DNA of 64,000 bases from a bacterium (GCA_963681965.1 OY820579.1:1472001-1536000); one strand, 5' to 3'. Positions 44,677 to 64,000 are shown, counted from the first letter of the stretch. A program made the numbers and translations. Notes: a model not told the origin generated them from the letters alone.

Positions 44677-45351
44677 GATTGCCTCAAATAAATATTTGTA
44701 TTGATTAACTAAGAATGAGATTGCATTACACAACAATTGTTGATAATAAGAGACTTTAATTCTCGATTTCGGATCTAAGGAGGAAGAAGCTAGGTTCGAA
44801 TAGAATGATGATAAGTCTAATATAATTAGGGTACTGATTAAAGATAGAGCTTCTTCGTAGCATAGTCAAGAAACGTTTTGCAGACACAAATAAATTATGG
44901 AAAATTTGAGCTGAATTCAGATGACCAAGACACAAGTAGATGTGAGATAAGATTGAATTTGATTTTATGAGTATGATAATTAATGAGTTGTAAGAAAACA
45001 GAGTAGCCCAAAATTCAGGATGTGAGTATGGTTTTTAAAGATTATTTACCAATTGTTTACATTTGTTACTGGTTTTTGAGAAATGACTTAGTTACTAGTC
45101 AGTAGGTAATATGTTTTTTGAAAATCGGGATTCAGATTGACAGTCTGGGTAAATATTACGATATTTAAATTTGTTATTTTTTACATTGCACACGCAATTT
45201 TCAAAAATTTTATTGATTCTGTTACGAATGCAACATGAAAGCGTAAGCTTTTTGGCTGCCGTAAATTGACATAGAAAATCATCTCATCGATTGATGACAA
45301 ACAAATAACAATTATTCCCTCGATTTCGAATTGTGCCGGGGGGGAGAGCTA

Positions 45352-48300: not shown

Positions 48301-49311
48301 CGGAAATCGATCGAATCGATTGAAACAGCCGCCATTCGCGCATCTGAACTAACAAAGCAAATGTTGGCATACTCCGGTAAGGGTAAGTTCTTAATCAATC
48401 AATTAAATCTATCGAAAGTTGTCGAAGAGATTTCGCATTTATTGGAAGTGTCGATCTCGAAACGAGTCGTATTGTCGTATCATTTCGCCGATAATTTGCC
48501 GAATATCGAGGGGGATGTTACACAAATTCGTCAGGTTGTAATGAATCTGATTACCAATGCTTCCGAGGCGATCGGCGATCGGAATGGAATGGTATCAATT
48601 ACGACCGGTAGTTTTTATGCGGATCGTGGGTACTTCGAGAATTCGTATGTCAGCGAGAACATGACCGAGGGTCATTACATCTTTATCGAAGTGAAAGATA
48701 CCGGGTCAGGAATGGACGAAGAGACCCTGAAGCGAATCTTCGATCCCTTTTTTACCACGAAATTTACCGGTCGAGGGTTGGGTCTTGCAGCCGTGATTGG
48801 AATCGTTCGCGGTCACCACGGTACGATAAAAGTCACTAGCGAACTAGGCGTGGGAACTACGTTTCGCGTGCTATTTCCGGTATCGAATGAAGAGTTAAAA
48901 TCGGAAAGTACTCAGTCGTCTACGAACCATCCGGAATGGAAATCGACTGGATCCGTTTTGGTGGTTGACGATGAACCAAGTGTCTTAGTATTGGCAAAGC
49001 AATTATTCGAGATGAAGGGATTTACCGTTATCACAGCTAGTGACGGATTAGAGGCAATTTCGCAATTCCGACAATTCATCGATCAAATACAATTTGTTTT
49101 ACTCGATTTAACCCTGCCAAAAATGAGTGGCGAAGAAGTATTCCGGGAAATTCGTCAACTCAAACCGGATGCCCGAATAATTCTTTCCAGCGGATACAAC
49201 GAACAAGAAGTAACTAGTCTGTTTGAAGGAAAAGGGATTGCCGGCTTTATTCAAAAACCGTACCGGATTCAGGAATTGTTGGATAAAATTCGCGAAATCT
49301 TAGAACAATAA
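45352..49311 (+). CDS. Cytoplasmic hybrid sensor kinase (about 6 PAS, 1 GAF, HisKA, HATPase, REC)
   Basis: Repeated PAS/PAC ends (DITxRK); LAGGIAHDFNNLL, MNLITNA, DTGSGM, FDPFFTTK, GRGLGL; receiver VDDE...LLDLTLP...KP; no TM segment. Confidence 0.93.
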   Translation: MKSLNTESIRFGHPMFDPNEMDTFADLLPQPVFETDRSGRLRYANRAAMNCFDFPVEQLNNGLSVLEVISETDRDRASQVFQKLVDGKISRIDSEFTVRNFRGVTFPIVAILSSVIVNNETIGVRGVLIEFSKTGHSNQLYTQSDDRYRSLYANLAIGTIYHTEKGLIDAANPAAAAILGTTVNELIGRSSFDSRTSIYSEVGATIGSDEFPSTVALTTGKLTERICGVRLPSSTHTRWYKVTAIPQLRFSEERAYQVVTSFEDITARKKLSEAVAAILGKESDPSGIEYLRFLAQELAIILETKYAFIGELTTTVPGRFSTVGIWSDDRFAEDEEFSLKNTIVETAIKKKLFYQNKINAQDFPKDKFLKQFNATDFCSQILTGHNHIPIGLIAVLNDRPIAEIEIAKSIMALFALRISSEIERRRIDEELQNANYKFKTLLSEMTEGVAFHEVIYDSSGKPINYRVIEVNTAFLNILGFQRDKVIGKLATEIFGVDYPPYLKEYSATAVSRVPYRFEIYFEPLRKHFDINVVSIQKGFFTTIFTDITDRKATESELQKNTEYYTFLTDSINDIVAQVDRDLVYTFLSRSLLMILGFDNKSLIGQSFTANIHPEDRPRIESTIRTCALAKATRLTLEYRHFTVDGDLKWIESTTRVLYDSNNEFDGCVLSSRDITDRKRAQQALKMSESQFRALAEGAKDAIFIKDSNLRYVFVNPVMASLLGLAVENMIGKTDHELLGERSNSYEIADQEVLLGKTVETEPTERIHGVWKTMHTIKVPLRTSQGEIIGICGIARDVTERNQSELALRESEERYRLLVDSLPVGIVAHCEGKIVFVNQTVVKMIGVESVLDLLGKSAIEFVHPEDRQRVATRMRAVIENREMQPSIEERFVRSDGSLFEAEVTSVPFMYHNKPAAQIVLVDISERKRAEDERRKLESQIQHTQKLESLGVLAGGIAHDFNNLLVGILGNAGLALMELPTDSPTRKSIESIETAAIRASELTKQMLAYSGKGKFLINQLNLSKVVEEISHLLEVSISKRVVLSYHFADNLPNIEGDVTQIRQVVMNLITNASEAIGDRNGMVSITTGSFYADRGYFENSYVSENMTEGHYIFIEVKDTGSGMDEETLKRIFDPFFTTKFTGRGLGLAAVIGIVRGHHGTIKVTSELGVGTTFRVLFPVSNEELKSESTQSSTNHPEWKSTGSVLVVDDEPSVLVLAKQLFEMKGFTVITASDGLEAISQFRQFIDQIQFVLLDLTLPKMSGEEVFREIRQLKPDARIILSSGYNEQEVTSLFEGKGIAGFIQKPYRIQELLDKIREILEQ

Positions 49312-49331: not shown

Positions 49332-50822
49332 CTAGTCCATTTTACGATAATTCACTCCTAATCGGTCAAGCAGAGGAAGATGTCTCACTAGACGTCGCTT
49401 GAAATCACCGAATTCCCGATTGGATTCCTGACTCCACAATACTTCCGACATCGCACACACGCGCGGAAATAGCATATATTCGACTTGTCGCCAATCAGGC
49501 ATGTACTCAGTCCATAGATTTCCCTGACCACCTAGGATATGTTTTCGGTCGATATCTGATAACTCCGCTGGAACCGGTTCGAATGCATATACTTGTTCCA
49601 ATGGTAAATCGTTCGGAAATGCTTTCGGTTCTGTTTCACGGTTTCCTTGATAGTAGTCGAAATAGCAGTGTCGAGTTGGCGACATTACGACATCGTGTCC
49701 CATAGTTGCCGCAGCAATTCCCCCTTCGAAACCACGCCACGACATCACTGCGGCTTGAGTAGCTAATCCCCCTTCGAGAATTTCATCCCAACCAATTGCC
49801 CTTTTTCCGCGTTGCGACAAAAAGGCTGCGATCCGTTTAACGAAATAACTCTGTAGTTCATATTCGTTTGCTAGTTTCTCTGATTTGATGCGATGCTGGC
49901 AGAGTGGACACTCTCGCCACCGGGTTTTCGGACATTCATCGCCGCCGATATGAATAAATTCATTCGGAAACAGATCGATCACTTCGTCCAACAGCCGTTC
50001 GAGAAAAGTGAAGGTATGATCATTACCAGCACAATATACATTATCGAAGATACCCCACTCGGTTGCAACTGAAATTGTCGATCCGGTACAAGAATACTCC
50101 GGGTATGCCGCTAGTGAAGAGGTTGCATGACCGGGCATCTCAATCTCGGGAACGATTTCGATGAATCGCGAAGTGGCAAATTGCACAATCTCTTTGATAT
50201 CGGACTGCGAATAGTAACCCCCGTATCGCGATCCATTAGCTTCAATTCGCCAGGCTCCGATCTCAGTTAATTTTGGGAATACCCGGCTCTCGATTCGCCA
50301 TCCTTGGTCGTCACAGAGGTGCCAATGAAATCGATTGAATTTGTATCGCGCTAGATGATCGATGAATCGTTTAATGTCGTCGACTGGGAAGAAATGTCGG
50401 GAAACATCGAGATGCATCCCGCGCCATGAAAATCGTGGTGAATCGACGATGCAACATCCTGCAATAGAAATTGAATCGTGGTGAATGGGTGAATTCGAAA
50501 TCAATTGAAGAAGCGATTGAATTCCGTGAAAGATACCGATCTGATCGTTGGCTCGTATGTTAATATTCAGATCACTGATTTCGAGGTGATAACCTTCCCA
50601 GTCAATTTCCGGAGATTGATCAATAATTTCCAACAAAATATCGTTGGAATTTGTATCGCCAATCGAAGCGATCGGCAAAGTGAGTTGCGTTTCGGTCGCA
50701 AGCTTCTCTTGCAGATACTTGGCTAGATGTCGTATCGAAGATTGAGTGGTGATTTGGCACGCAGAATTTAGAGAGTAACTACAATTGCGTGTTTCATAAT
50801 GTTGAGGTTTTGGAATAATCAT
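49332..50822 (-). CDS. Beta-N-acetylhexosaminidase (GH20)
   Basis: DSPRFSWRGMHLDVSRHF, FHWHLCDDQGWR, HIGGDE, GWDE, LWTEY; likely start MIIPKP at 50822; no signal peptide. Confidence 0.93.
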   Translation of the reverse strand: MIIPKPQHYETRNCSYSLNSACQITTQSSIRHLAKYLQEKLATETQLTLPIASIGDTNSNDILLEIIDQSPEIDWEGYHLEISDLNINIRANDQIGIFHGIQSLLQLISNSPIHHDSISIAGCCIVDSPRFSWRGMHLDVSRHFFPVDDIKRFIDHLARYKFNRFHWHLCDDQGWRIESRVFPKLTEIGAWRIEANGSRYGGYYSQSDIKEIVQFATSRFIEIVPEIEMPGHATSSLAAYPEYSCTGSTISVATEWGIFDNVYCAGNDHTFTFLERLLDEVIDLFPNEFIHIGGDECPKTRWRECPLCQHRIKSEKLANEYELQSYFVKRIAAFLSQRGKRAIGWDEILEGGLATQAAVMSWRGFEGGIAAATMGHDVVMSPTRHCYFDYYQGNRETEPKAFPNDLPLEQVYAFEPVPAELSDIDRKHILGGQGNLWTEYMPDWRQVEYMLFPRVCAMSEVLWSQESNREFGDFKRRLVRHLPLLDRLGVNYRKMD

Positions 50823-50826
50823 CTCA

Positions 50827-51855
50827 TCACCTATTCTGCCAGAGATTCGGGATTTTATCCCATCCCACGAGATATGCGGAAACTCGCCAGTAACCAAAGT
50901 CCCCTTTTTCGTTTTTGGGACGCATTCTTTCAATTGCGAATTTAATTGAGTGTTTTCCGGTGGTAAGAGCATCGGAAAGATCGATTTCATAAGGCTTCAC
51001 TTCGCAACCGGGACACCATCCACTGCGGCTATAGTCGGATGACCAACTCCCATCTGCCCAGTGTGAAGTATATGGATTGCGTTCGCGATATTGTCGGCAA
51101 TCGTCCCGCCAGGGATAAAACCGCTCGACGACGTTTCCATCGACCCGAATCACATTCGCTTTCGATACAAATTCATCTTCATTGGTTCCATCGGTACAGT
51201 GACCGGTGGTAAAATAAATCATCGCAACACGTTTCAATCCATCCGGTATCGAGATCTCGGTTTCAGCACCATTAGGTTGATCTTGTTGATTAAAGGAATC
51301 ATTATAATAGACCGGAGTTGCCCAAGTGGCATTGTCGTAGTCGCGTGATGTCTCGTAGCGTAACGAGAAGCTAACGATCCATCCCGGAGAAGTCCAGGTA
51401 TCGATAAATGTGCGAAAAGTTTGTTCGCCTTGTAATAACGGTGCAATATAACTAACATCGGTTTCATGTTCAGTTCGTCCGCCATACGATGTCATGAAAC
51501 GCATGATTTCTAGATCGGGCTTCCCCTCGATTGCCAACCGGATATTTCCCGCGCGGTCCCATCGATCGAACACCGTTCGCTCGTCTTTGTAGATCGGTTG
51601 AAGGATCACATGCGCAAAGATTCGAACCGATGAATCGGGGGAAGGTAGCTTCGATTTGGTTGATAAGATCCGCCCGTTATCACTTGCGATCAGACCTTTC
51701 TCCGCATATTTGGATGCGGAATCGGGTTGGAAATGAAGAGTGACAGTTTGAAAGATCGGAATCGTTATCGTATCGGGATTGGAAACGGCAGAACAGACGC
51801 CAGCGAGGAACAACAAGAGAATGGTCAAATTGAATCGACCGAAATTCCTTAACAT
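50827..51855 (-). CDS. Secreted peptide-N-glycosidase F (PNGase F)-like protein
   Basis: DRWDR, EIMRFMTSYG, TGH, DEF, SRSGWCPG resemble PNGase F motifs; signal peptide from ATG 51855. Confidence 0.78.
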   Translation of the reverse strand: MLRNFGRFNLTILLLFLAGVCSAVSNPDTITIPIFQTVTLHFQPDSASKYAEKGLIASDNGRILSTKSKLPSPDSSVRIFAHVILQPIYKDERTVFDRWDRAGNIRLAIEGKPDLEIMRFMTSYGGRTEHETDVSYIAPLLQGEQTFRTFIDTWTSPGWIVSFSLRYETSRDYDNATWATPVYYNDSFNQQDQPNGAETEISIPDGLKRVAMIYFTTGHCTDGTNEDEFVSKANVIRVDGNVVERFYPWRDDCRQYRERNPYTSHWADGSWSSDYSRSGWCPGCEVKPYEIDLSDALTTGKHSIKFAIERMRPKNEKGDFGYWRVSAYLVGWDKIPNLWQNR

Positions 51856-52065
51856 AATCACCTCAGTGAATTCAATTTGAATCCAATTCAATTCTTGAGT
51901 GAAGTTGCACTTCGCTAAAAGTAAGCTCCCGTCTAATTTATTCCAACAATGATCTTTCAAATATGGATTTCACTGAAAATTTCTTCAATTTGCTCTTCAG
52001 CATGATATTTGATTGAAGTGTGTTGTATCTTGTCTTTGAAGATGTCACATCTACCCGGAACAACC

Positions 52066-52940: not shown

Positions 52941-53564
52941 GTGCGAACTTATCCAGATAACCGTTATTTATTGTTACTATTATCTTTTGTTGCACTGGTC
53001 ATGTTTTGGTCGGTGGTTCAACCAAAAGACCTTTACACATGGTTTCTGGAAGTGTTTCCGATATTTATCGGTCTTCCGATCTTGTTTTTTACCCGAAATC
53101 GAATGCCACTTACAACCTTTACTTACACAGTGATTTCGCTACACTGTTGTATTTTGATGGTAGGTGGTCATTACACCTATGCGGAAGTACCACTCGGAGA
53201 ATGGTTCAAAGATTGGTTTGGATTTACACGCAATCATTACGATCGCATCGGACACTTCGCACAAGGATTCGTCCCCGCGTTGATTGCACGTGAAATTTAT
53301 TTGCGAAAAACATCGATGCATCCCGGTGGCTATCTGACTTTGACAGTGGCAGCAATTCCATTGGCAGTCAGCTTACTTTACGAATTACTTGAATTTGGAG
53401 TGGCGATTGCATCCGGCGCTGCTTCCGACGCCTTTCTCGGTACGCAGGGTGATATCTGGGATACGCAGAAGGATATGCTGCAGGCAAGTATTGGAATGAT
53501 AGCGGCACAGCTTTTCTGTTCCCGGTACCAGAATCGAGTCGTTGTCAGGGAATTGATGAAATAA
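52941..53564 (+). CDS. DUF2238 (YjdF-like) inner membrane protein
   Basis: TWFLE, GGHYTYAEVP, RNHYDRIGHFAQG, FLGTQGDIWDTQKDM. Confidence 0.88.
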   Translation: MRTYPDNRYLLLLLSFVALVMFWSVVQPKDLYTWFLEVFPIFIGLPILFFTRNRMPLTTFTYTVISLHCCILMVGGHYTYAEVPLGEWFKDWFGFTRNHYDRIGHFAQGFVPALIAREIYLRKTSMHPGGYLTLTVAAIPLAVSLLYELLEFGVAIASGAASDAFLGTQGDIWDTQKDMLQASIGMIAAQLFCSRYQNRVVVRELMK

Positions 53565-53696
53565 CGAGAATAGATCGGCAGCCATGGAATTACATTACCA
53601 TAATTCAATTTGTAAATCTATACGAAACAATATTGTACACTCATTTTCGGTTTCCGGCTCGGCGATGTATATTAGTCAAGTATTGGAAGGATCGAT

Positions 53697-53972
53697 ATGG
53701 CAATGAACTTAACGACTCGCGCACTCTATTTCCGTGATGGAAAAAATGTGATTGTGCTATCTCCGGAATTGGGTGTTACTTCTTGGGGCACTTCAGTCGA
53801 TGATGCGACCCGCAATTTAAAAGAAGCGGTGAAACTATACTGCGAGACGGCTCGCGATCAGAATGAACTGGAAGATGTATTGGAAGAGGCAGGGTATCAA
53901 CATGAAGGAACGATGTGGGTACCACCAGCGCTCGTCGATCAACAGGACGTGGAAGTAGAGATCAATGAGTAG
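53697..53972 (+). CDS. hicB: HicB-family antitoxin (short, no DNA-binding domain)
   Basis: SPELGVTSWGTSVDDATRNLKEAVKLY. Confidence 0.8.
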   Translation: MAMNLTTRALYFRDGKNVIVLSPELGVTSWGTSVDDATRNLKEAVKLYCETARDQNELEDVLEEAGYQHEGTMWVPPALVDQQDVEVEINE

Positions 53973-54303
53973 CAAAACGATACCGGCAAAATTCGTGCTT
54001 CGCGCATTGGAAATGGATGGCTACCTTCCGAAGCGGGGTGAAGGAAATCATGTGATCTATGCCGGACGGCATGGCGGAAATCTAATCGTGTTACGCAATA
54101 CGGGAGATACGCCTACGATTCAGATTCGCTGGATCCTCGAAACGGCGGGTATTCCGCGGGCACGTTTTCTGGCAAATGTCGCAAAGGCTAAACAGGAACC
54201 ACGTCGACGCTATACCTTGTTGGGAACGATTTTTGCCAAACCGGCAGAAACGCTTGAGAAGAAACAGGAACCGGAAATTCCGATTCCGCCGCGAAAAAAA
54301 TAG
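53965..54303 (+). CDS. hicA: HicA-family toxin-like protein with C-terminal extension
   Basis: LRALEMDGY...GNHVIY...ILETAGI; overlaps hicB by 8 bp. Confidence 0.65.
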   Translation: MSSKTIPAKFVLRALEMDGYLPKRGEGNHVIYAGRHGGNLIVLRNTGDTPTIQIRWILETAGIPRARFLANVAKAKQEPRRRYTLLGTIFAKPAETLEKKQEPEIPIPPRKK

Positions 54304-54321
54304 GTGTTCGGAATATTGTTA

Positions 54322-54355
54322 GAAAACCGGCAACCCTCTCGGATTGCCGGTTTTT
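54322..54355. terminator. Bidirectional terminator between hicA and the cytochrome cluster
   Basis: GAAAACCGGCAA...TTGCCGGTTTTTC. Confidence 0.8.
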
Positions 54356-54395
54356 CATTTTGTTAAATGAACTAATTACATCAAACTGTTGCTTG

Positions 54396-55847
54396 TTAGC
54401 TTACCGGGATCATCCTAGTCACAATTTCAACACCCATCTGCGTTAAGAAATCATTCGGCGACTCGCCACCGAGTAGTAAGAACGAATAGTCGTTTGGCAC
54501 CGATTTTTCGCTCCCGTCTTTCAACTTCAAGACGACATCTTTCTCATTTATCCGAATCACATTCGATTCGAAATAAGAGATAATTCGTTTCTCACTGATT
54601 GCGCGGTCGATTGCCTCACGGTTCCGTGGCATGATCCGGTCGAATTTGTTGCGACGATAGCTGATTGATACCCGATTCGATTTCTGATTTGCCAGTCCAA
54701 CTGCCGCTTCGACAGCGCTATCGCCACCTCCCACGATCAAAACATCGCAGTTTGTGTAGTCATTGGCATCGTAAAGCTGGTAAGTCACTTTCGCTAAATC
54801 TTCGCCCGGTACATCCAACTTCCGCGGAGTTCCGCGACGCCCGATTGCGAGGATCACGCGTTGACTGATCAGGTTTCCGTGATTGGTTTTCACTGCGAAA
54901 GTGCCGTCCGATTGTTTCATGACGCCTTCGCAACGGGTGTGTTCGCGGACTTCTATTCCGGTGTTCGCGACGATTGTTTGCCAGACTGTTAGCAACCCCT
55001 CTTTCGAGCTGTCCTGAACCCAGAGATTACCATAGAGTGGAATGTCAATCGGTTCCGCCATCACGAATTTATTTCGGGGATACTTCCGAATGGTCGATGC
55101 GAGTTCTTCGGCTTCGATCGTGATTGTATTGAAATTGTATTTTTTTGCTGAGAGCGCTGCCGACAGACCCGCCGGACCAGCGCCAACGACGATGATATCG
55201 GCGATTCCTTCGCGCGGACGAAGGTTGCTGCGAATGCGTTCGACTACGTTTCGTCCTTCATTCACAGCATGCTTGATCAGTGCCATCCCACCTAATTCAC
55301 CAACGATATAGAGACCTTCAACATTAGTTTCGTAATTTTCTTTTACAAATGGTACTTGAATTTTTCGACCACTACCTACTCGAACAAGGACTAACGCACC
55401 CGTCGGACAGACGGTGCCGCATTTGCCGGCACTCGTACAGAGATCGGCATCCGGTAGCACTGCTTTGTGATTAACCAAAGCCAAGGCATTTTCCGGACAG
55501 ACCGAAACACAAGTACCGCAGCCAATACAACTGGAGATATCAATCGCTGGTTTTAGCGGAGCCGACTCATCTTCCGGAGCATTCGGATCGACAATCGGTG
55601 CTCGCTTCAGATCGTACATTGCGAGTGGAGTACCGCACTTGGGACAAAAGATCGTTCCTTTCGGAATCGGTGTTGAACACTGTGCACACGGAATCGAGGG
55701 CAAAGCCGTCTTCATTCCGGTGACAGTCGCCGATTTACCGCTGTTGGTGGGTGCTTTCGCAGCTTGGTCCCGCAATTTCTTTAAGTGAAGATGAATCGGG
55801 ATTGCCATCAACATCAAGGCAAATACAAAAAATATCAAAGTTTCCAT
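54396..55847 (-). CDS. Membrane-anchored zinc-ribbon + ferredoxin + TrxR-like FAD/NAD(P)H oxidoreductase
   Basis: N-terminal TM; CAQC...CPKC; CIGCGTCVSVCP and CTSAGKCGTVCP; VGAGPAGLSAA; VGGGDSA...YRR. Confidence 0.88.
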   Translation of the reverse strand: METLIFFVFALMLMAIPIHLHLKKLRDQAAKAPTNSGKSATVTGMKTALPSIPCAQCSTPIPKGTIFCPKCGTPLAMYDLKRAPIVDPNAPEDESAPLKPAIDISSCIGCGTCVSVCPENALALVNHKAVLPDADLCTSAGKCGTVCPTGALVLVRVGSGRKIQVPFVKENYETNVEGLYIVGELGGMALIKHAVNEGRNVVERIRSNLRPREGIADIIVVGAGPAGLSAALSAKKYNFNTITIEAEELASTIRKYPRNKFVMAEPIDIPLYGNLWVQDSSKEGLLTVWQTIVANTGIEVREHTRCEGVMKQSDGTFAVKTNHGNLISQRVILAIGRRGTPRKLDVPGEDLAKVTYQLYDANDYTNCDVLIVGGGDSAVEAAVGLANQKSNRVSISYRRNKFDRIMPRNREAIDRAISEKRIISYFESNVIRINEKDVVLKLKDGSEKSVPNDYSFLLLGGESPNDFLTQMGVEIVTRMIPVS

Positions 55848-55872
55848 CGGTACAATCCTTGAGCAAGATCGA

Positions 55873-56799
55873 CTAGAAGATCCAGCGATAACCCAGCAAG
55901 ACAACGACAATTACATGAACCATCAATGTGCCATACATCAGGAATGTGAGTGGTTTGTGGAACACATGCCACCAATCGAATAGTGCATGTGCCGCACCTA
56001 GTAATTGAATTTTACGCATCAGTAGCGATTTCCGTCGAGCGAGAAGTACAATTTCATCGACTTTCGCTCGATCCATATTTTCTTTTTGTAAAGTATGGCG
56101 CAATTCGCGAATCTGTCGGAACCGGCTGAGATCGTCTCGCATCATAAACTTCAATGCACCCAGGGCACCGGTATCTGCAATATTTTCGTCGACCGACGAT
56201 ATTTTATCGATGTGTTCGAATACTGGATGCGTTAATCCAAGTTCTTTACGCAATGCACCGACCAATCGGCGGTCTTCAGTTTCCAGCTCTTGCATCGATA
56301 ATTCGGTACCAGCGAGTGTTTTTGGAATTTGACTATACAACCATCGACCGATGATGCCTGATAAAACTACTCCGACCATTGCCCAAAAGCTCAACGCGGG
56401 AAGCTGTGAATCAAGTTTTCCAGTGGAATGGTACAAAACAAACATCGGACCGCATAATCCCATCGTAATATGAAGCTGTAACCAAACTCGCAACGATCCC
56501 CAATTCCGCATGAATTTCAACCGTTTCCGCGCAACATAAATATAAATCGAGAGCATCATCAGTGTCCCGATAACACCGAGTGTATGTCCGATCGAACCGC
56601 GTGAACTCCACTGCGCGTGCATCGGATGAAACATCCGTCCGGGAGCGTCGGGTGTGTCGAAGATTGGAGTTAAATAATATGCCTTACCCTTCAACGCGAG
56701 GATGACGAAGAACAATGTCATCACCACAGTTAGGATGTAAGGTAAAACTTTCACGAATGTGACTGCTCGAGGGGCAGTGTCGGTTCTTGGATTTGCCAT
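55873..56799 (-). CDS. Ferric-reductase-like (cytochrome b) membrane protein
   Basis: About 5 TM helices; two His pairs 14 residues apart (LHITMGLCGPMFVLYH, FHKPLTFLMYGTLMVH). Confidence 0.72.
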   Translation of the reverse strand: MANPRTDTAPRAVTFVKVLPYILTVVMTLFFVILALKGKAYYLTPIFDTPDAPGRMFHPMHAQWSSRGSIGHTLGVIGTLMMLSIYIYVARKRLKFMRNWGSLRVWLQLHITMGLCGPMFVLYHSTGKLDSQLPALSFWAMVGVVLSGIIGRWLYSQIPKTLAGTELSMQELETEDRRLVGALRKELGLTHPVFEHIDKISSVDENIADTGALGALKFMMRDDLSRFRQIRELRHTLQKENMDRAKVDEIVLLARRKSLLMRKIQLLGAAHALFDWWHVFHKPLTFLMYGTLMVHVIVVVLLGYRWIF

Positions 56800-56889
56800 A
56801 GATTGAATATAAGGTATCTAGTTGAAAGAGTTCAGTAAATTTCTTCGAGTTGACTGATTTCTTGAACTATCTCCTGAGATAATAATAAA

Positions 56890-58176
56890 TTACTTCTTGT
56901 GACTAGGAATCCGATATCCGAGATCGAACAATATGACTTTGTCTTGTTGAGAATTGGCAGTTGTCAATTCCCCGGTAACTCCTGCGCTCCAATCGTTCAA
57001 CCAATACCACAATGATAGCTCCCATCGGTTGGAGTCATAGCGGCTCTCACCACCACCAAATCCGCTTTTGTACTCGTTACGTTCAATATAATATCCGAGT
57101 CGTGGTGATAAACCTGCCAACAACTCTTTCTCGAGTGAGATTGAATAACTGGAACCGCGATAATAGAGGTTGTTATTGAATCCAGCATCAATGAAGGTAT
57201 ACAACGGTTTAATCTGCTTTGTATTGGCAGTCAGACCTAGTCCATAAGATGTACCGTTGTCGTTGTTTTTTTCGCGTCGTTGGAAGCGGACATTACTATG
57301 CCAGTCGATTTGCGGGATCATCCGATAATTGATGCCCGCGGAATAATCGTAGACCGGTTCCGATTCGAATAACGTATCGGCGATGTCTCGCATCGATCTG
57401 AGTAATTTGAAACCGCGCCGAAATCCGACCGATTGTTGAAATCGCCACTTCTGACCGGAAGATTCGCTGGCGTTAATCTGGAAATTGGAAATGCGAATAC
57501 CCGACTTGTCGGAATTGTTATCGCGATAGGCAAAGTCGAGTTCCAGCGTTTGATAGAGGTAGCTTCGGGCAAATGGCGTGAAGGATAGATTTTGTGTTAA
57601 CAATCTGCGATCCAGTTTTCCCTGACACTGTTGTTCTAATATCGAAACACCCCAACTGTGTGAATAATCGATCGCGTGTCCACTTACCGCAACACCAAAT
57701 TTGCTGATATCTTTTCCTAAGCCGAAAGTGTTTAAGTCTGGTTCATTGCCACCATACACCGAAAGTTCAAGTTTCGGTTCCGGCGAATAAATGATCCGAC
57801 CGCCATCGAGAAACCCGATCCCACCGAATCCCCTGCTACCCAATCGACCGGCTTGGACATCCCATTTCGGTGAGAGTCGCCACCCGAGCCATGCTTCGTA
57901 TACTCGCGATTGTTCGATTTTCGTTGAAACATCATGGCGGATTCGCGCATCGAGTGCGCCATGGATCGATTCTGTGAACAAATGATCGACATTAACAAAT
58001 CCGCGAAACGATGGCTCGACGCGTTTTTCACCGATGTCCGGGTACAATGAGTAAACACCGACTCCGAACCGACCGGAAAATTGCGGTGGAGTCTGACTAA
58101 AGCAAAACTGCACTAGTGCGATGATAGCTAAAACAACAGTGATTAATCGATTCACTTTCCGAGCTTGGAGGATCAT
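56890..58176 (-). CDS. Outer-membrane beta-barrel (porin-like) protein
   Basis: Signal peptide, amphipathic strands with aromatic girdles, terminal ILFDLGYRI strand; ATGA overlap with the cytochrome gene. Confidence 0.75.
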   Translation of the reverse strand: MILQARKVNRLITVVLAIIALVQFCFSQTPPQFSGRFGVGVYSLYPDIGEKRVEPSFRGFVNVDHLFTESIHGALDARIRHDVSTKIEQSRVYEAWLGWRLSPKWDVQAGRLGSRGFGGIGFLDGGRIIYSPEPKLELSVYGGNEPDLNTFGLGKDISKFGVAVSGHAIDYSHSWGVSILEQQCQGKLDRRLLTQNLSFTPFARSYLYQTLELDFAYRDNNSDKSGIRISNFQINASESSGQKWRFQQSVGFRRGFKLLRSMRDIADTLFESEPVYDYSAGINYRMIPQIDWHSNVRFQRREKNNDNGTSYGLGLTANTKQIKPLYTFIDAGFNNNLYYRGSSYSISLEKELLAGLSPRLGYYIERNEYKSGFGGGESRYDSNRWELSLWYWLNDWSAGVTGELTTANSQQDKVILFDLGYRIPSHKK

Positions 58177-61100
58177 TTATTGGTTCCTCCAGTTGGAAGT
58201 TTAGGAGCTGTAGGCGATATTCCGCGCTGTGGGAGTAATCGTCCTCCACCACCACCCCTACCGTGACAAGCAGTAGTAATGCATGAATTGCTGTTGCAGA
58301 TAAATCCGGAAACTCCGTTGTGTTGGTTCTGTAGCCGGGTACATCCGTTATGGCATGTGATGCAATCGAGTTGGATATAAGTGGCAGTGTTCGGATGACA
58401 TCGGTCGCAGGATACATTGTGATCGCCGGTTAAAATAAACCAACTGTGGCTTGAGAGACGTCCTTGTTGCCAAGTCGTGTTCGACACTCCATGGCAGGGA
58501 CTGCAATTGATTCCGAAGACTGTTGGTGAAGCGGTATGATTCGCCGGATAAACCGGTTGCTGGCAATAATTCGAAGAACTTGAACTGTGACAATAGCGAC
58601 AATCCGTCGTCGCCCCGGTGATTGTTCGATTTTGGTGACAGTTTACACACGTTTGTTGGGCATGAATACCTTGCCCGAAAACACCGTCGTTGGTGTGAGT
58701 CCAGCCGTGAGTAGGTGTCCAACCATTGGTTGCGGCAGGATCATGGCAATTACCGCAATTATCGCCAATCTGTCTACGCCACAGATCGTCCTGACTTCGA
58801 GTCCAATGACACGTGAAGCAGTCGGTCGGGGTATTGGAATACTGATTGTTCACATGACATTGAACGCAAGTCGTAGTGCTGTGCCGACCATTCAAAGCAA
58901 ATACCGTGCTGTGATTAAAAGTTGCCGGTCGCCAAGCGTCCCTTCCGGGATGACAGGTTCCGCACTGAGAAGTCGGAAATATCGTCGGATTGGCGTGATG
59001 CGACGGATTGGATGTTGTGTCGTAAGCAGTAGTATGGCAGCGATAACAATCGGTCGGAGTATTCGAATAGGTTCCGTGATGACAGTCGTTGCAAGCTGCG
59101 GTAGCATGTCTTCCCGACAGTGGATAGACGGTTGTGTGGTTGAAATTCGCTTGCGTCCATTGTCCGCCGCTGGTATGACACGTTCCACACTGCGCGGTTG
59201 GAAAGATCGTCGGGTTGGCACTATGCGATGGATTCGACGTCGTATCGTATTCGGTAGTATGACAATGATAACAATTAGTCGGAGTATTCATATAGGTCCC
59301 GTGATGACACTCATTGCAGGTAGCGGTAGCGTGTCTTCCCGATAGTGGATAGACGGTTGTATGGTTGAAATTCGCTTGCGTCCATTGTCCACCACTGGTA
59401 TGACAGGTTCCGCACTGCGCGGTCGGAAATATCGTCGGGTTGGCACTATGCGATGGATTCGACGTCGTGTCGTACTCGGTTCGATGACAAGAGTAGCACA
59501 CCTGCGAAGTAGTATTATAGTTTCCGTGATGACAATCGTTACAACTTGCCGTGGCGTGTCTGCCTGTTAACGGATACACCGCAGTATGATTGAAATTCGC
59601 CTGCGACCATTGTCCACCACTGGTATGACACGTTCCGCACTGAGATGTCGGATAAACCGTCTGATTGGTACGATGTGTTGGATTAGAGGTTGTATCGTAT
59701 TCGGTTGTATGACAAGTGTAGCAATCGGATGAAGTTCCTGAATACCGCGTGGTGTGGCAACTATTGCATGCCGTCGGTTGCGGAGATGCATGACGACCGC
59801 TTAATGGAAATAAAGTGTGAGCGTAATTCGCTGCAAACCAAGTTTGATCGGCGTCGCTATGGCAGGTTGCACATTGAGTGTTGAAGCCAGCTAACTGATG
59901 GTTTGGATTTGCTGAGCTATTGTAGACAGTCTGATGGCACCCTACGCAATTCGTTTTACGCGAATCAGAAGCTGGCGTTCGAGTCGTATGGCAATCGATA
60001 CACAATTTTTGAGCATGCTTCCCTTGAAGTTGGTAATGTGCAACAGTGTTGTGGTCAAATTGCACATTTTGAGTCCAACCGCCGGTGTTGTGACATGTTC
60101 CGCAATTGGTACCGTTCGCCAATCGCCAGAGGTCGGATTGCGTTCTGGTCCAATGACAGGTATAGCAGTCGGTGGGGGTTCCGGCATACTGATTGTTCAA
60201 ATGGCACTGAGTGCAAGTAACCTGAGTTGCGTGCCGTCCGGTAAGTGGAAAGTTGGTGTGAGTGAATGTGGTTTGCTCCCAACTGGACGCCGATTGTTGA
60301 TGACAGGTTGTGCAATCGCGGGGATATGTTAGATGAGCAGGATGTTCCGCACCGGCGCGAGTGAAATCGGAGGAATGACACCCGTTACATTCTCTTGTCG
60401 TTCCGCTATAATGTCCGTTGACATGGCATTGTGTACAAGAAGTATAGGCAAGACTATGTTTTCCGACCAACGCATATGAAGTGTGGGAAAAATTCTGTGC
60501 ACGCCAGTCTGGACCGCCATTACGATGACATTGTACACACTCTGTTTTCGCGAATCCGGCAGCAGCATGATTCGGATCCGTCATCCGATCGTATTCTTTC
60601 TGGTGGCAACTGTAGCATTCGGTGGATGCATCGGCAAATCGCTGGGTCTTGTGGCACTCAGTGCAATTTGTGGTCTGATGCTTATTCTGCAGCGGAAAAT
60701 TCGTTCGTGTATGAGAGAATTGCAGGTCATTCCATCGCGAGGGTCGATGGCAATCGGTACAGGTTTGCGATAAATACCCTTGATGCACATCGGTATGACA
60801 ACGATTGCATTCCATCGGTATTCCGGCATATTTCCCGGAACTATGGCACTGTTTGCAATCTACTGACTGATGTGTCCCTTCCAGTGGAAAACGGGTCAAG
60901 CGATGATTGAAAACTATGCCACTCTTCCAACCCATCGGAGAGTGACATTGTTCGCAATTCTTCCCGAAAGTACCATTGTGGTGATCGTTTTTCGCGTGGC
61001 AATTGTTACAACTTAATTCACTGGCAGCGAATTTGAATTTGCCATCCTTGTGGCATTCGGTACAATTTGTCGTTGCATGTTTCCCGATCAAAGCAAATTG

Positions 61101-62471
61101 TGTGGTTGCGTGTTGTGTTACACCGAAATTGGATGGTTTCCAGCTTTGATTGGAATGACATTGAGTACACTGCGAACTTAGTTGTCCCTTGTGCTGGTCT
61201 TTATGGCATCCCAGGCATTCACGTTGCTGTGCGGTAAACGCAAACCGGTTGTCTTTATGGCAATCGTTACAGGCGAGGGTTGCATGTTTCCCGGCTAATC
61301 GAAAATGCGACGTGTCATGCTGCGTTTGGGTAAATGTCGAGGGTTTGAAGTGATCGACCGTATGACAAATCTGGCAATTCGTCGATAATTGACCTTTGTG
61401 TTGATCTTGATGACAACTGTTGCACTTCTTTTGATCGGATGTGAATTTGAATCGGTTTTCCTTATGACATTTATTGCACGCTTGATCCAGATGTTTTCCT
61501 GCCAGTTGAAAACCGGTCTGATTGTGTTTAACGGTAGTATAAAGCGATGGAATAAATTTTGTCTCGTTGTGACACGTCTTGCAGTCGTTGCCGAGCTGTC
61601 CTTGGTGACGGTCGGTATGACAAGCCACGCAGGAACGCTGATTGAGAACTGGTTTTAGTTTTGGATTATGACAGGCATCGCAACGTAGTAGCGCGTGTGC
61701 TTCATTTAACGTAAAACCGGTTTTTGTGTGATCGAAACCGGCTAACTTATTCCATCCACCGGGAGAGTGGCATTCAGTGCAATTTTGGTTGAATTTTCCT
61801 TTATGTGGATCGTTGTGACAAGACCGGCAGTCCTTGGATAGCGAATTCCACTTGTTTTCCTTATGGCATTGCGCGCAGGCAACTTCAACATGTTTTCCTG
61901 TTAATTTCCAGGAAGTCTTACTGTGATCAAATTGTGGCGCCGGAGTCTTCCAACCGAGATTGGAGTGACAATCGAGACATCCTCGTTTTAAATCAGAACC
62001 ATGTTGATCCTTATGACAACTCAGACATTCGGATTTTAAACCGGAATAGCTGTCTTTTTTCTTATGACATTCGGTACAATTCAGGGTTTGATGTTTTCCG
62101 TCTAATTTCCATCCGGTTTCTTCATGTTTAAATGCTTTGGGGTCCCATCGAATTAACCGTCCACTTACACCGATGTGTTCTTTATGACATGTTGCGCAAT
62201 TGCGCGATTGTTTGGCGTGGTATCCACGATTCTTGTCGATACTGGTTCGAATCCCATCATGGCAAGCAAGACAAAGATTCGTCGATATTCCTTGTTTCCC
62301 GGACCCTTCATGACATGCGACGCAATTATTGGAACCCTCCAGCGAGGAGTGAACTTTGGTCAACGGTCCCGGAGAAATAACACTGGCTACGCTGAGTTTT
62401 ATTGCTACTGCAGATAGCAGCAGTATAGCATAAAACAAGTATACCTTGGATCGGTGGAACGGAGGTTTCAT
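58173..62471 (-). CDS. Giant multiheme c-type cytochrome (56 CxxCH + 1 CX4CH)
   Basis: Signal peptide or anchor then SPGPL; heme motifs counted by hand; repeating H...H-CxxCH-CxxCH-H-CxxCH triheme units. Confidence 0.95.
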   Translation of the reverse strand: MKPPFHRSKVYLFYAILLLSAVAIKLSVASVISPGPLTKVHSSLEGSNNCVACHEGSGKQGISTNLCLACHDGIRTSIDKNRGYHAKQSRNCATCHKEHIGVSGRLIRWDPKAFKHEETGWKLDGKHQTLNCTECHKKKDSYSGLKSECLSCHKDQHGSDLKRGCLDCHSNLGWKTPAPQFDHSKTSWKLTGKHVEVACAQCHKENKWNSLSKDCRSCHNDPHKGKFNQNCTECHSPGGWNKLAGFDHTKTGFTLNEAHALLRCDACHNPKLKPVLNQRSCVACHTDRHQGQLGNDCKTCHNETKFIPSLYTTVKHNQTGFQLAGKHLDQACNKCHKENRFKFTSDQKKCNSCHQDQHKGQLSTNCQICHTVDHFKPSTFTQTQHDTSHFRLAGKHATLACNDCHKDNRFAFTAQQRECLGCHKDQHKGQLSSQCTQCHSNQSWKPSNFGVTQHATTQFALIGKHATTNCTECHKDGKFKFAASELSCNNCHAKNDHHNGTFGKNCEQCHSPMGWKSGIVFNHRLTRFPLEGTHQSVDCKQCHSSGKYAGIPMECNRCHTDVHQGYLSQTCTDCHRPSRWNDLQFSHTRTNFPLQNKHQTTNCTECHKTQRFADASTECYSCHQKEYDRMTDPNHAAAGFAKTECVQCHRNGGPDWRAQNFSHTSYALVGKHSLAYTSCTQCHVNGHYSGTTRECNGCHSSDFTRAGAEHPAHLTYPRDCTTCHQQSASSWEQTTFTHTNFPLTGRHATQVTCTQCHLNNQYAGTPTDCYTCHWTRTQSDLWRLANGTNCGTCHNTGGWTQNVQFDHNTVAHYQLQGKHAQKLCIDCHTTRTPASDSRKTNCVGCHQTVYNSSANPNHQLAGFNTQCATCHSDADQTWFAANYAHTLFPLSGRHASPQPTACNSCHTTRYSGTSSDCYTCHTTEYDTTSNPTHRTNQTVYPTSQCGTCHTSGGQWSQANFNHTAVYPLTGRHATASCNDCHHGNYNTTSQVCYSCHRTEYDTTSNPSHSANPTIFPTAQCGTCHTSGGQWTQANFNHTTVYPLSGRHATATCNECHHGTYMNTPTNCYHCHTTEYDTTSNPSHSANPTIFPTAQCGTCHTSGGQWTQANFNHTTVYPLSGRHATAACNDCHHGTYSNTPTDCYRCHTTAYDTTSNPSHHANPTIFPTSQCGTCHPGRDAWRPATFNHSTVFALNGRHSTTTCVQCHVNNQYSNTPTDCFTCHWTRSQDDLWRRQIGDNCGNCHDPAATNGWTPTHGWTHTNDGVFGQGIHAQQTCVNCHQNRTITGATTDCRYCHSSSSSNYCQQPVYPANHTASPTVFGINCSPCHGVSNTTWQQGRLSSHSWFILTGDHNVSCDRCHPNTATYIQLDCITCHNGCTRLQNQHNGVSGFICNSNSCITTACHGRGGGGGRLLPQRGISPTAPKLPTGGTNK
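58960..59715 (-). repeat. 225-bp (75-aa) tandem repeats inside the cytochrome gene
   Basis: TGAAATTCGC recurs at 59141, 59366 and 59591; near-identical peptide units. Confidence 0.9.
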
Positions 62472-62803
62472 ATAACACCACGAGCTGATACTGGATTTAG
62501 GGATTTAAATGAATGATTATCGTACAAGTAACGAAAAGATCTTCCACTCTGCAACGATTTATGTGATGATTTTGAAATAGAATTCATATCATTTAACCGT
62601 GAATTCTACAAAACACATGTTAACAAGGTCGTCACTCGTTTTCCGATAGTAAAGAAGATTGAAAACTGTTACTTTGAATTTGGATTCGTAAAATGCGTGT
62701 TATTAATTGTTGATGTTTGTCACTTCAGAATGATGAAGAAATATATTGTATATATGTAATTAATTATTCAAAGTATAAATGAATATTTGATAGGGAACTG
62801 ATT

Positions 62804-63502
62804 ATGTCGAAATTCGGACTGCTTGGAACCGCTCACCATCGCGAACCGTGGGAACGCTTTCTTCATGAGTCACAAATTGAAACCGTTGCTATCGATCGTG
62901 CACCACTCCAATCGTTACACGAATTAGAAGTTGTGATTGTCGTCGATACCGATTTTCGATCATCGGTGTTACAAAAAATTTGGTTATTCGAAGCGCATAT
63001 GGATCCAACTGCACCAATCTTTGCGAATCTGGTTGCCAGCAATGCCGCACATCTTGCTGCACTCTGTACGAAGCATCCCGAACGTGTTCTGGGGTTTGCC
63101 TGTTGTCCGCCATTGGGTAAGTATGCCATCGAAATTTCTCGAACCGAATTGACAAGCGAGACGACTTTTCAAGCGGGTTTGAACTATCTGGAACAAATGC
63201 ATCTACCGATACATCTAGTTGCCGATCGTGCCGGAGGGATCTTTTCTCGAACCTTGGCAATGTTAATCAATGAAGCTTGTGTGATGTTACAGGAAGGAAT
63301 TGCAGATTCTGATAGCATCGATTGTGCAATTCGCCATGAATCCGATTTGCCGCATGGTGCACTGGATTGGGGTGAAGCGATCGGCTCCGCGTATCTTCTA
63401 GACGTACTGCAAGGTATTTTCGATGAGACTGGAGATAGTCGTTATCGACCGTCTGCCTACTTAAAGCGTTGTGTCGATCTGAATATATCGTTGAAGCATT
63501 GA
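62804..63502 (+). CDS. 3-hydroxyacyl-CoA dehydrogenase family protein with degenerate N-terminal domain
   Basis: HPERVLGF, DRAGGIFSRTLAMLINEA, IDCAI, RYRPSAYL; no GxGxxG. Confidence 0.75.
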   Translation: MSKFGLLGTAHHREPWERFLHESQIETVAIDRAPLQSLHELEVVIVVDTDFRSSVLQKIWLFEAHMDPTAPIFANLVASNAAHLAALCTKHPERVLGFACCPPLGKYAIEISRTELTSETTFQAGLNYLEQMHLPIHLVADRAGGIFSRTLAMLINEACVMLQEGIADSDSIDCAIRHESDLPHGALDWGEAIGSAYLLDVLQGIFDETGDSRYRPSAYLKRCVDLNISLKH

Positions 63503-63515
63503 GATTTTGGTAGGA

Positions 63516-64000
63516 TTAAATCGCAGATAAATCGTCAGAAGTCACTTCGGAACTAGGCTTATCCCACAAAATAGTTCCACATTTAAGGGCGATGATACGG
63601 TTACAGACTGTCATGAGTAATTCATGATCATGACCGGCGATCGCATACCCTCCCGGATGCTGTGCGAGTACTTTCGCAATTGCGAGACTTCCTGCCGGGT
63701 CCAGTGCTGCAGTCGGTTCATCCCACAGCAAAAAAGTATCTTCCGAATGAAGCGTTGCTGCCAATGCCACCCGACGTGCCTCGCCACCCGAAAGGGAATA
63801 GGGATCGCGATGCAGAAACTGTTCCGGTTCCAATCCAAATTTCAGTAGTCGCTCGCTGGCAATCTTTTCGCTTACGACGGGATCGGGTCCGCCGATCTCT
63901 TCCCGAACATTCATCGTCAGAAATGCTTGTTCCTGAAATTGGAAGGAGAGCGATGTGAGGGGAAATCCGGATGACTTGTCAATCCTGCCACGATCCGGTT
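63516..64000 (-). CDS. ABC ATPase, ECF-transporter A-component-like (3' part; 5' end outside window)
   Basis: RDPYSLSGGEARRVALA, LLWDEPTAALDP, GHD switch. Confidence 0.8.
   Translation of the reverse strand, partial: PDRGRIDKSSGFPLTSLSFQFQEQAFLTMNVREEIGGPDPVVSEKIASERLLKFGLEPEQFLHRDPYSLSGGEARRVALAATLHSEDTFLLWDEPTAALDPAGSLAIAKVLAQHPGGYAIAGHDHELLMTVCNRIIALKCGTILWDKPSSEVTSDDLSAI

Follow-up and report, generated by a model that had tools for sequence, protein, structure and literature searches.

A PCC3-type gene cluster with a fused 57-heme cytochrome and a conserved Fe-S flavoprotein partner, a candidate route from NAD(P)H to the cell exterior

The well-studied routes by which Gram-negative bacteria export respiratory electrons all start at the quinol pool. 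Could a conduit to the cell exterior be fed instead, directly, by reduced nicotinamide adenine dinucleotide (phosphate) (NAD(P)H)? This question is raised by four genes of an uncultured relative of the Bacteroidota, which lie in a stretch of 64,000 nucleotides of its genome (GCA_963681965.1, OY820579.1:1472001-1536000), here called the window. An initial annotation of the window had proposed that these genes encode the parts of a quinone-independent path, namely a multiheme cytochrome, an outer-membrane beta-barrel, an inner-membrane protein and a protein with iron-sulfur (Fe-S) motifs and a flavin adenine dinucleotide (FAD) domain. We found all four open reading frames (ORFs) at the places given there, co-oriented and head to tail on the minus strand (62471 -> 54396), and the parts had been named correctly. 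Our main finding is that the four genes are, judging from their sequences, a variant of the PCC3-type cluster, a kind known since 2017, and that it differs from the descriptions we found in print by a fused 57-heme form with a shortened barrel and by a conserved flavoprotein partner. We read the cluster, with middling confidence, as an envelope-spanning PCC3-type electron conduit with a dedicated cytoplasmic entry module for NAD(P)H, probably working outwards and independently of quinones.

PCC3 was described by He, Barco, Emerson and Roden in 2017 (PMC5566968) as a set comprising a porin, two multiheme cytochromes, one of them extracellular and the other periplasmic, and an inner-membrane protein of about 300 residues. 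In the passages of that paper that define the set, the extracellular cytochrome has a median of 34 hemes, is rich in Thr, Ser, Ala and Gly and contains internal repeats; the periplasmic one has a median of 21 hemes (21-27); and the inner-membrane protein, in PCC3 as in PCC4, has five helices, with SGXXG on the fourth transmembrane helix (TM4) and WX3HX13H on both TM3 and TM5. The window has what look like the same components: a putative porin-like barrel, periplasmic-type sequence with about as many heme sites as the 21-heme protein, larger heme-binding sequence rich in Thr, Ser and repeats, and a five-helix protein of about 300 residues. We assign the cluster to PCC3 because its membrane protein carries the exact PCC3 motifs and because two modules can be told apart in its cytochrome, one Lys-rich with 20 hemes and the other Thr-rich with 37. 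This likeness is one of motifs and composition as published; homology was compared with plasmid-borne membrane proteins of proteobacterial loci, PCC4-like and cytochrome-associated. The differences are fourfold: here the two cytochromes are fused into one 57-heme polypeptide; the barrel is without its N-terminal part of about 110 residues; here and in relatives a membrane-anchored Fe-S flavoprotein is the constant fifth (here fourth) gene; and the host is no proteobacterium.

The initial annotation had compared the locus with MtrCAB and Geobacter-type systems, and passed over the 2017 cluster, as outlined in PMC5566968, to which the cytochromes, the porin and the membrane protein belong. MtrCAB with CymA in Shewanella, and OmbB-OmaB-OmcB with ImcH and CbcL in Geobacter, likewise lead a multiheme chain through an outer-membrane barrel to outside acceptors. 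Their proteins, however, contain 8-12 hemes each, the genes that go with them encode neither a diheme-b protein nor a flavoprotein, and, according to the parts of PMC5566968 and PMC7399161 that treat them, they draw their electrons from quinol via separate inner-membrane c-type cytochromes. The cytochrome of the window falls far below the family cut-offs, with 35.9 bits for DmsE (cut-off 192.2) and 16.2 bits for OmcA/MtrC (cut-off 209.3). A flavoprotein partner of PCC3, a fusion of its cytochromes, or its occurrence in the phyla considered below: none of these did we find described in the open-access and bioRxiv literature, the supplements of He et al. 2017 aside, nor in the relevant passages of PMC7399161, PMC5317091, PMC13013709, PMC7005843 and PMC11323493.

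Does the flavoprotein belong to the cluster? We compared 79 genomes of the same phylum, distributed over nine families; being related, these genomes are dependent samples. The profile of the membrane protein matched 35 of them, and a full-length flavoprotein (E<=1e-158) was present in exactly the same 35 genomes and in none of the 44 others, one of which has a shorter paralogue (2e-45). The 35 carriers are scattered over five of the nine families, a patchy distribution which implies that the pair was gained or lost together several times. The barrel profile matched 32 of the 35 carriers, the three exceptions being fragmented assemblies, and 2 of the 44 other genomes.

Gene order tells the same story. 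Twenty same-phylum loci were taken around the membrane-protein gene, ten of them extended downstream; by tblastn the flavoprotein is present in 19 and multiheme cytochromes are present in 19, and in the exception (G016) the flavoprotein and a barrel fragment are on another contig. The flavoprotein gene adjoins the membrane-protein gene in 15 of the 20 loci, often overlapping it or lying a few bases away (13 loci by ORF maps; L029 and L039 by tblastn coordinates only). The usual order is membrane protein, flavoprotein, in some loci a TPR protein, a 20-heme cytochrome of about 570 residues, a cytochrome of 31 to 112 hemes and, directly 3' of the latter, a barrel of about 530 residues. The TPR protein, which is anchored by a transmembrane helix, has about 195 residues (L025:15170-15757; also L028, L035, L038 and L023); it weakly matches the TPR domain of CcmH/CycH, could be a maturation helper, and is not encoded in the window.

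Outside the phylum, a pattern scan yielded 338 loci encoding a relative of the membrane protein. The best 80 of the 338, which we examined, include Zixibacteria, Calditrichota, Ignavibacteria, Acidobacteriota, KSB1, Krumholzibacteriota and Bacteroidota; among the 37 of these 80 that extend for at least 8 kb downstream of the membrane-protein gene, all but L058, L076, L078 and L127 encode a cytochrome with at least 10 hemes, a barrel and a flavoprotein (33 loci). Another subgroup is divergent, and those of its members that have a name belong to the Gemmatimonadales; it has 547 metagenome relatives, of which 80 were kept; in the 30 mapped loci of at least 7 kb from this Gemmatimonadota-like subgroup, the flavoprotein was found in 18 and an ORF with at least 10 hemes in 25. 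The whole cluster also resides on a 100-kb plasmid of a cultured bacterium, pEMTOL02 of Emticicia oligotrophica DSM 17448 (NC_018749.1, L132, 78197-89995), in the order CcsBA (1028 residues), membrane protein, flavoprotein annotated 'NAD(P)-binding', 23-heme cytochrome, 40-heme cytochrome and barrel (538 residues). A Rieske protein, a DUF5777 barrel and a c-type cytochrome are encoded in the same neighbourhood of this plasmid. The search for neighbourhoods holding all four families was thus strongly positive, within the phylum and in others, as the initial annotation had suspected.

The membrane protein has further partners on proteobacterial plasmids. A tblastn search of plasmids with the membrane protein matched 28 records, and three of the proteins encoded there are homologous to the family considered here (hhalign 99.8%, E 1e-28). 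One arrangement, with a homologue of 252 residues, is that of Alteromonas macleodii and Methylophaga pinxianii: directly 5' of the homologue is encoded a flavoprotein of 612-644 residues, of the FNR type (FAD_binding_6, NAD_binding_1 and 2Fe-2S), and 3' of it a 7-heme cytochrome. In Sphingobium, a protein of 841 residues (Pyr_redox_3, two cNMP domains and Fer4_11) is directly followed by a homologue of 292 residues with both WX3HX13H motifs and then by a 10-heme cytochrome; the flavin domain of the 841-residue protein is homologous to that of the window's flavoprotein (E 7e-30). The Alteromonas triad (L133, plasmid NZ_OX335041.1, 59717-65278) lies directly upstream of [NiFe] hydrogenase and hyp genes, and that of Methylophaga (L134, plasmid NZ_CP095734.1) near ccm genes. 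The Sphingobium locus, with its Pyr_redox_3, cNMP and Fer4_11 protein, membrane protein and 10-heme cytochrome, looks like PCC4, which has in common with the window an inner-membrane protein with the same motifs. PCC4 itself comprises three small cytochromes, with 4, 5 and 10 hemes, all of them periplasmic and none extracellular, and is drawn with a link to quinone; its subgroup II has an Fe-S gene (pfam13247) directly upstream of that for the inner-membrane protein, and other redox genes are present (PMC5566968). In all, Fe-S flavoproteins of the NAD(P)H type stand beside this kind of membrane protein and a multiheme cytochrome in three architectures, one of which has a different fold. Among the indirect arguments, this recurrent pairing is the best one for a link, made by the membrane-protein family, between cytoplasmic pyridine nucleotides and periplasmic hemes, and it lends indirect support to a step from NAD(P)H to heme b.

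What kind of protein is this membrane protein? Called IMP or P0003, it carries the motifs W106x3H110x13H124, S147G148xxG151 and W277x3H281x13H295, with 13 residues between the histidines of each pair. The residues H110, H124, H281, H295, W277, G75, Y88, G148 and G151 are invariant in 65 family members (26-72% identity to P0003). Hydropathy finds TM1, TM2, TM4 and TM5, TM3 being polar and below the threshold; together with the basic loops, it suggests a topology with the N-terminus inside, followed by TM1, a conserved periplasmic loop (YY.TP...), TM2, a basic RKR loop inside, and TM3 to TM5. TM3 would carry H110 and H124, and TM4 the SGxxG motif; a helical insert of about 110 residues would then lie in the cytoplasm before TM5, which would carry H281 and H295. 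In such a fold H110 and H281 would be near the cytoplasmic face and H124 and H295 near the periplasmic face, an arrangement of two stacked b hemes.

The protein is a member of a large family without a Pfam model: a word-indexed search found 17 relatives, and a profile searched against 1.84 billion representatives matched 4832 of them at E<=1e-3, including 1084 at E<=1e-30. P0003 itself has no Pfam match at E<=1, and its profile found no meaningful relative among Protein Data Bank sequences. Of the 65 members, 42 matched DUF4405, 25 Ferric_reduct and 22 the prokaryotic cytochrome b561 family (Ni_hydr_CYTB) at E<=1; even the best of these matches are weak, with E values of 5.7e-6, 2.8e-5 and 2.7e-4, respectively, and two Ferric_reduct matches that we checked scored 18.5-19 bits for a cut-off of 28. 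Other families were matched by few members (DUF6713 by three; PepSY_TM, TMIE and DUF3708 by two each; the rest by one). The ferric-reductase/NOX, DUF4405 and b561 families (PF01794, PF14358 and PF01292) likewise have two His pairs on two helices with a spacing of 13 residues. This convergence on diheme-b families, a matter of remote homology only, and the four invariant histidines support a heme-b reading of the protein, and speak for the resemblance of its His pairs to those of diheme-b ferric-reductase domains that had been pointed out initially. NOX and FRE enzymes have two stacked b hemes across the membrane, which receive their electrons from an NAD(P)H/FAD domain. Unlike in these enzymes, the flavin module is here a separate, TrxR/YpdA-like Fe-S protein instead of a fused FNR-like domain, and the proposed acceptor is a c-type heme wire instead of O2 or Fe(III) chelates. 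One protein of 418 residues (P0123) was considered as a natural fusion of membrane protein and flavoprotein and was rejected, as it is a chimera that also contains a cytochrome-like stretch. Its sequence comprises the first four membrane-protein helices, this stretch and the end of a flavin domain, and its probable origin is an ORF of a metagenome that was mis-called or carries a frameshift.

The fourth protein is the candidate entry point for electrons. Its longest ORF starts at TTG 55910, an unlikely start; all orthologues begin at the position that corresponds to ATG 55847 (Met-Glu, then a hydrophobic helix), which is therefore the most likely one. Pfam and NCBIfam matches give the domain order: N-terminal transmembrane helix, Zn ribbon, Fer4 dicluster domain with two Fe-S motifs, and Pyr_redox_3, in agreement with the membrane-anchored Fe-S/FAD protein of the initial annotation. 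The Zn ribbon is an insertion peculiar to the window's family. In all of the 28 aligned orthologues the N-terminal helix is followed by basic residues, so the bulk of the protein, with its catalytic part, should be cytoplasmic. The nearest solved chains are the NADPH-dependent bacillithiol-disulfide reductase YpdA/Bdr (7a7b, E 1e-26) and a TrxR-like ferredoxin-NADP reductase (3ab1, E 1.6e-15), with whose FAD and NAD(P)H domains it aligns over about 260 residues. Unlike in YpdA/Bdr, the flavin domain has a ferredoxin-like domain, a Zn ribbon and a transmembrane anchor fused to it, and it is circularly permuted: the C-terminal FAD segment of YpdA, and of the Sphingobium protein, here precedes the first GxGxxG. 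It scores 174.6 bits with the NCBIfam model for YpdA (TIGR04018, cut-off 339.9), and is thus related to the YpdA/Bdr family without being a member. A disulfide reductase of the YpdA/TrxR kind was considered and rejected, since Ala is aligned with the Cys of the GGGPCG motif of YpdA (7a7b) and no CxxC occurs in the flavin domain. We read the protein as a putative NAD(P)H:Fe-S oxidoreductase. GGGDSAxE, and the Arg that ends an SYR(K/R) strand, are invariant in the 28 orthologues; we take them, by analogy with TrxR structures, to be a putative NADPH-type site. A complex prediction with the membrane protein, the flavoprotein and two hemes gave a score of 0.03, compared with a mark of 0.32, and speaks neither way.

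The cytochrome contains 56 CXXCH sites and one CX4CH at residue 1397, and because both of its closest orthologues have a canonical CXXCH at this position, 57 is a fair count of its heme sites. There are 25.1 residues per heme, and its 125 His residues would suffice for bis-His ligation of all hemes. With one hydrophobic segment, at the N-terminus, it looks like the exported 57-heme protein that had been annotated. Twelve stretches match Pfam Cytochrome_C7; NCBIfam gives TIGR04257 (nanowire_3heme); matches to the MtrC/MtrF domains II/IV of Pfam and to the DmsE family are weak, and a search against Protein Data Bank sequences found no meaningful relative.

Comparison with the relatives indicates that this protein is a lineage-specific fusion of a periplasmic-type and an extracellular-type cytochrome. 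The best alignments of 20-heme orthologues (15 of 15 tested) run from residues 1-16 through residues 493-576 of the fused protein, signal peptide included, and the start motif ISPG..L..H..LEG..NC..CH is common to both; the 20th CXXCH is at residue 488. The large cytochromes of the relatives align from about residue 500 on, and their N-terminal motif, NPHG..W.C..CH...SW, recurs at residues ~497-516, directly after the 20th heme site. Lys makes up 10% of residues 1-560; Thr makes up 15.7% of residues 561-1432, where charged residues are few. Finally, 20 and 37 add up to 57, and several relatives have a separate 37-heme protein. The periplasmic-type PCC3 cytochrome of about 20 hemes is therefore present as the N-terminal module, and the rest fits the large PCC3 cytochrome in its Thr content and its tandem 225-bp units, although here it is fused to the periplasmic module and its location is a prediction.

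A single protein of this kind, with 57 to 60 hemes, was found only in the window's own family (G000, G042 and G044), in which three of four genomes carry the cluster; the protein of the window has 57 hemes, its two closest relatives 57 and 60. Duplication of the 225-bp unit, a three-heme tandem repeat, seems to be the way in which heme number evolves, and would explain its drift. The initial annotation had counted 'one giant heme wire', where the relatives reveal two cytochromes that were joined in one lineage. The large cytochromes of L076 and L078 (67 and 73 hemes) were considered as further fusions and rejected, as their N-terminus is of the large-cytochrome type and not of the 20-heme type. 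In one genome of the phylum (L043:359-8566, G063:C1), an ORF of 2735 residues with 112 CXXCH lies between a separate 20-heme cytochrome gene and a barrel gene.

The barrel, a putative outer-membrane beta-barrel and porin part, aligns with the 21 barrels of related clusters by hhalign (99.8%, E 5e-28; residues 28-423 to 132-539 of 540). With 428 residues and a hydrophobic, signal-like segment at its N-terminus, it is without the N-terminal domain of about 110 residues of the usual form of about 530. Pfam and NCBIfam gave no match for it, and its profile found no solved porin or other meaningful relative among Protein Data Bank sequences. Its nearest named Atlas clusters are outer-membrane barrels (score 0.92), which we take as a lead only; a crude scan for alternating hydrophobicity gave about 23 candidate strands, and the related long barrels mostly end in GYRF (consensus). 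The barrel ATG overlaps the cytochrome TGA as ATGA, which the initial annotation had read as translational coupling.

How could these parts work together? In the conduit that we propose, NAD(P)H would reduce the FAD of the flavoprotein at the cytoplasmic face, and electrons would pass via two Fe-S sites to the cytoplasmic-side heme b (H110, H281) and across the membrane to the periplasmic-side heme b (H124, H295). From there they would enter the N-terminal 20-heme module, predicted to span the periplasm, and the 37-heme Thr-rich module, held in the barrel or threaded through it, would carry them outwards to an extracellular acceptor, for example a partner cell, humics, or minerals of Fe(III) or Mn(IV). 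Two considerations favour the outward direction: NAD(P)H has a low potential, and the membrane potential is inside-negative. Such a step would then dispose of reducing equivalents and conserve no energy, and would act as a redox valve. In its most far-reaching form, the proposal makes the cluster an NAD(P)H:extracellular-acceptor oxidoreductase, NOX-like but split, with no part for the quinone pool at all, which we put forward only tentatively and hold to be rather doubtful.

Several points weigh against the proposed conduit, and the first group of them concerns quinones. Proteins of the Ni_hydr_CYTB type, to which the membrane-protein family is weakly matched, are quinone-reactive in known enzymes. 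The genome encodes a quinol-based chain with two cytochrome bd and two heme-copper oxidases, which leaves room for a quinone link. Moreover, He et al. 2017, in their discussion of the inner-membrane protein, pointed to its likeness to ferric-reductase domains and suggested that it is a diheme cytochrome b which is quinone-active and exchanges electrons with quinone (PMC5566968). Proteobacterial PCC3 is described as four genes without a flavoprotein in the relevant passages of that paper and of two later ones (PMC9900912, Hoover et al.; 10.1101/2025.02.27.639646, on Sideroxydans CL21), the later two giving its function as still unverified. On these grounds, the membrane protein could be a quinol- or quinone-linked cytochrome b, as in the published model of PCC3, and the flavoprotein an optional second input or a regulator. 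We consider this unlikely, since the co-occurrence of flavoprotein and membrane protein is perfect in the 79 genomes, homologous membrane proteins are repeatedly paired with other NAD(P)H-type flavoproteins, and no quinone site is defined in the membrane-protein family.

A second difficulty is energetic: outward flow from NAD(P)H would dissipate the membrane potential, with no obvious benefit to an organism that has oxidases. Multiheme wires are reversible in principle, and electrons could conversely travel inwards, from extracellular Fe(II), minerals or a cathode through the cytochromes and the membrane protein to the flavoprotein, and on to NAD(P)+ or another cytoplasmic acceptor. Indeed, it was in bacteria that oxidise Fe(II) that PCC3 was first found, and the passages of PMC5566968, PMC9900912 and 10.1101/2025.02.27.639646 that deal with it model it as a route of uptake. 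Uptake of this kind would, however, require a donor of very low potential, as electrons would have to move against the inside-negative potential and up to about -320 mV (as estimated from standard potentials), and most of the named hosts are not known as Fe(II) oxidisers; we regard it as very improbable.

A third point is the fusion itself, which poses a real puzzle, namely the route by which a heme-loaded 37-heme module would reach the outside. The fused protein could not simply be secreted, despite two secretin genes in the genome: the alternatives are a barrel that assembles around the wire and a cytochrome that never leaves the periplasm. In the latter case, the cytochrome could be a wholly periplasmic electron store (capacitor) or reductase and the barrel have another role; or the membrane protein and the flavoprotein could supply reductant for making or maintaining heme-rich proteins. 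The fusion is indeed easiest to accommodate if both modules are on the same side of the outer membrane, and several related clusters adjoin genes for the biogenesis of cytochrome c (in Emticicia CcsBA, in Methylophaga ccm, and the TPR protein with its weak CcmH/CycH-type match). We nevertheless find this explanation quite improbable: the barrel accompanies the membrane protein in nearly all carrier genomes, directly 3' of the large cytochrome gene, and, at the roughly 0.8-1 nm per heme of solved heme wires, a chain of 57 hemes would far exceed the width of the periplasm. The composition of the C-terminal module is also that which He et al., in their account of the cluster, ascribe to extracellular cytochromes (PMC5566968).

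The remaining points against the conduit concern details of the flavoprotein and of the promoter. The first Fe-S motif of the flavoprotein reads CxxCxxCxxxCP in the window and is without its second Cys in other families of the phylum; the second, C-x2-(H/A)-x2-C-x3-CP, has His in most orthologues and Ala in the window's family (C-x5-C-x3-CP). Two 4Fe-4S clusters are therefore not certain, and a His-ligated or three-iron cluster is possible at the exit site. As for the promoter, the region upstream of the cytochrome gene is AT-rich, as initially annotated (GC of 62500-62999 is 0.348, compared with about 0.44-0.51 within genes), but a promoter did not emerge from it: sigma-70-like sites are at chance level (17 found, 14.7 expected), and upstream of the cytochrome gene there is no TANNTTTG motif of the Bacteroidota type. 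We presume that the promoter lies in this intergenic region (Table 1).

The layout of the four genes is operon-like. The ATGA overlap is followed by a gap of 90 bp between the barrel and membrane-protein genes and one of 25 bp between the membrane-protein gene and the flavoprotein ATG, both flanking genes are on the opposite strand and unrelated to the cluster, and a terminator-like hairpin follows. The G+C core of this hairpin starts 46 nt past the flavoprotein stop codon, and the region (fold of 54400-54250, minus strand) has -47.3 kcal/mol with z = -4.52, none of 200 shuffles being as stable; together with the U-run, this upholds the terminator that had been placed 3' of the cluster. An Rfam search of 53500-63600 gave no match. 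The coordinates of all features are collected in Table 1.

Table 1. Coordinates in the window of the four genes, of the parts of the cytochrome gene and of the flanking elements.
Feature	Position	Strand	Remarks
AT-rich intergenic region 5' of the cytochrome gene	62472..62803	.	shared with a divergent + strand gene
Cytochrome gene	62471..58173	-	1432 aa, 57 heme sites
Cytochrome residues 1-495, signal peptide and 20-heme, Lys-rich module	60987..62471	-	orthologous to a separate 20-heme periplasmic-type cytochrome of ~570 aa
Cytochrome residues 496-1432, 37-heme, Thr-rich module	58173..60986	-	orthologous to a separate large extracellular-type cytochrome
Tandem array of 225-bp units (75 aa, three hemes) in the cytochrome gene	58950..59716	-	3.4 copies, 81% matches
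Barrel gene (putative outer-membrane beta-barrel, porin part)	58176..56890	-	428 aa
PCC3-type inner-membrane protein gene (IMP; P0003)	56799..55873	-	308 aa, five TM helices, putative diheme cytochrome b
Membrane-anchored Fe-S flavoprotein gene	55847..54396	-	483 aa from ATG 55847
Terminator-like hairpin	54323..54354	-	10-bp G+C-rich core extended by A/U pairs, then UUUUCU

The cluster is present in a single copy in the complete 4.24-Mb genome, which has 19 frames with at least three CXXCH. Genes for cytochrome c maturation, absent from the window according to the initial annotation, are found elsewhere in the genome and belong to system II (CcsA and ResB). The neighbour upstream of the cluster is a 3-hydroxyacyl-CoA-dehydrogenase-like gene; downstream are a HicAB-like pair and a DUF2238 gene. 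The pair consists of two small overlapping ORFs of 91 and 112 residues (53697-54303, plus strand) with weak HicB-like and HicA-like matches, which converge on the terminator region of the cluster and may encode a toxin-antitoxin pair. Further away, a GH20 beta-hexosaminidase is encoded beside a PNGase F-like protein (49332-51960, minus strand), a pair that points to the degradation of glycans or glycoproteins; the longest frames of these two genes (49332-50990 and 50827-51960) overlap by ~160 bases, and the start of the first gene may be further in. A hybrid sensor kinase of 1326 residues, with many PAS domains, HisKA, HATPase and a receiver domain, occupies 45331-49311 (plus strand).

If the proposed reading is true, heme conduits of a very widespread family would act as valves that lead directly from NAD(P)H to the outside of the cell. 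The membrane protein of this family has thousands of representatives, across the FCB-group phyla, Acidobacteriota, Gemmatimonadota-like lineages and Proteobacteria, and the way in which such conduits are modelled in metal, humic and interspecies electron transfer would change. The fused 57-heme form is, in addition, an experiment made by nature: do the two cytochromes make up a single, continuous wire through the barrel?

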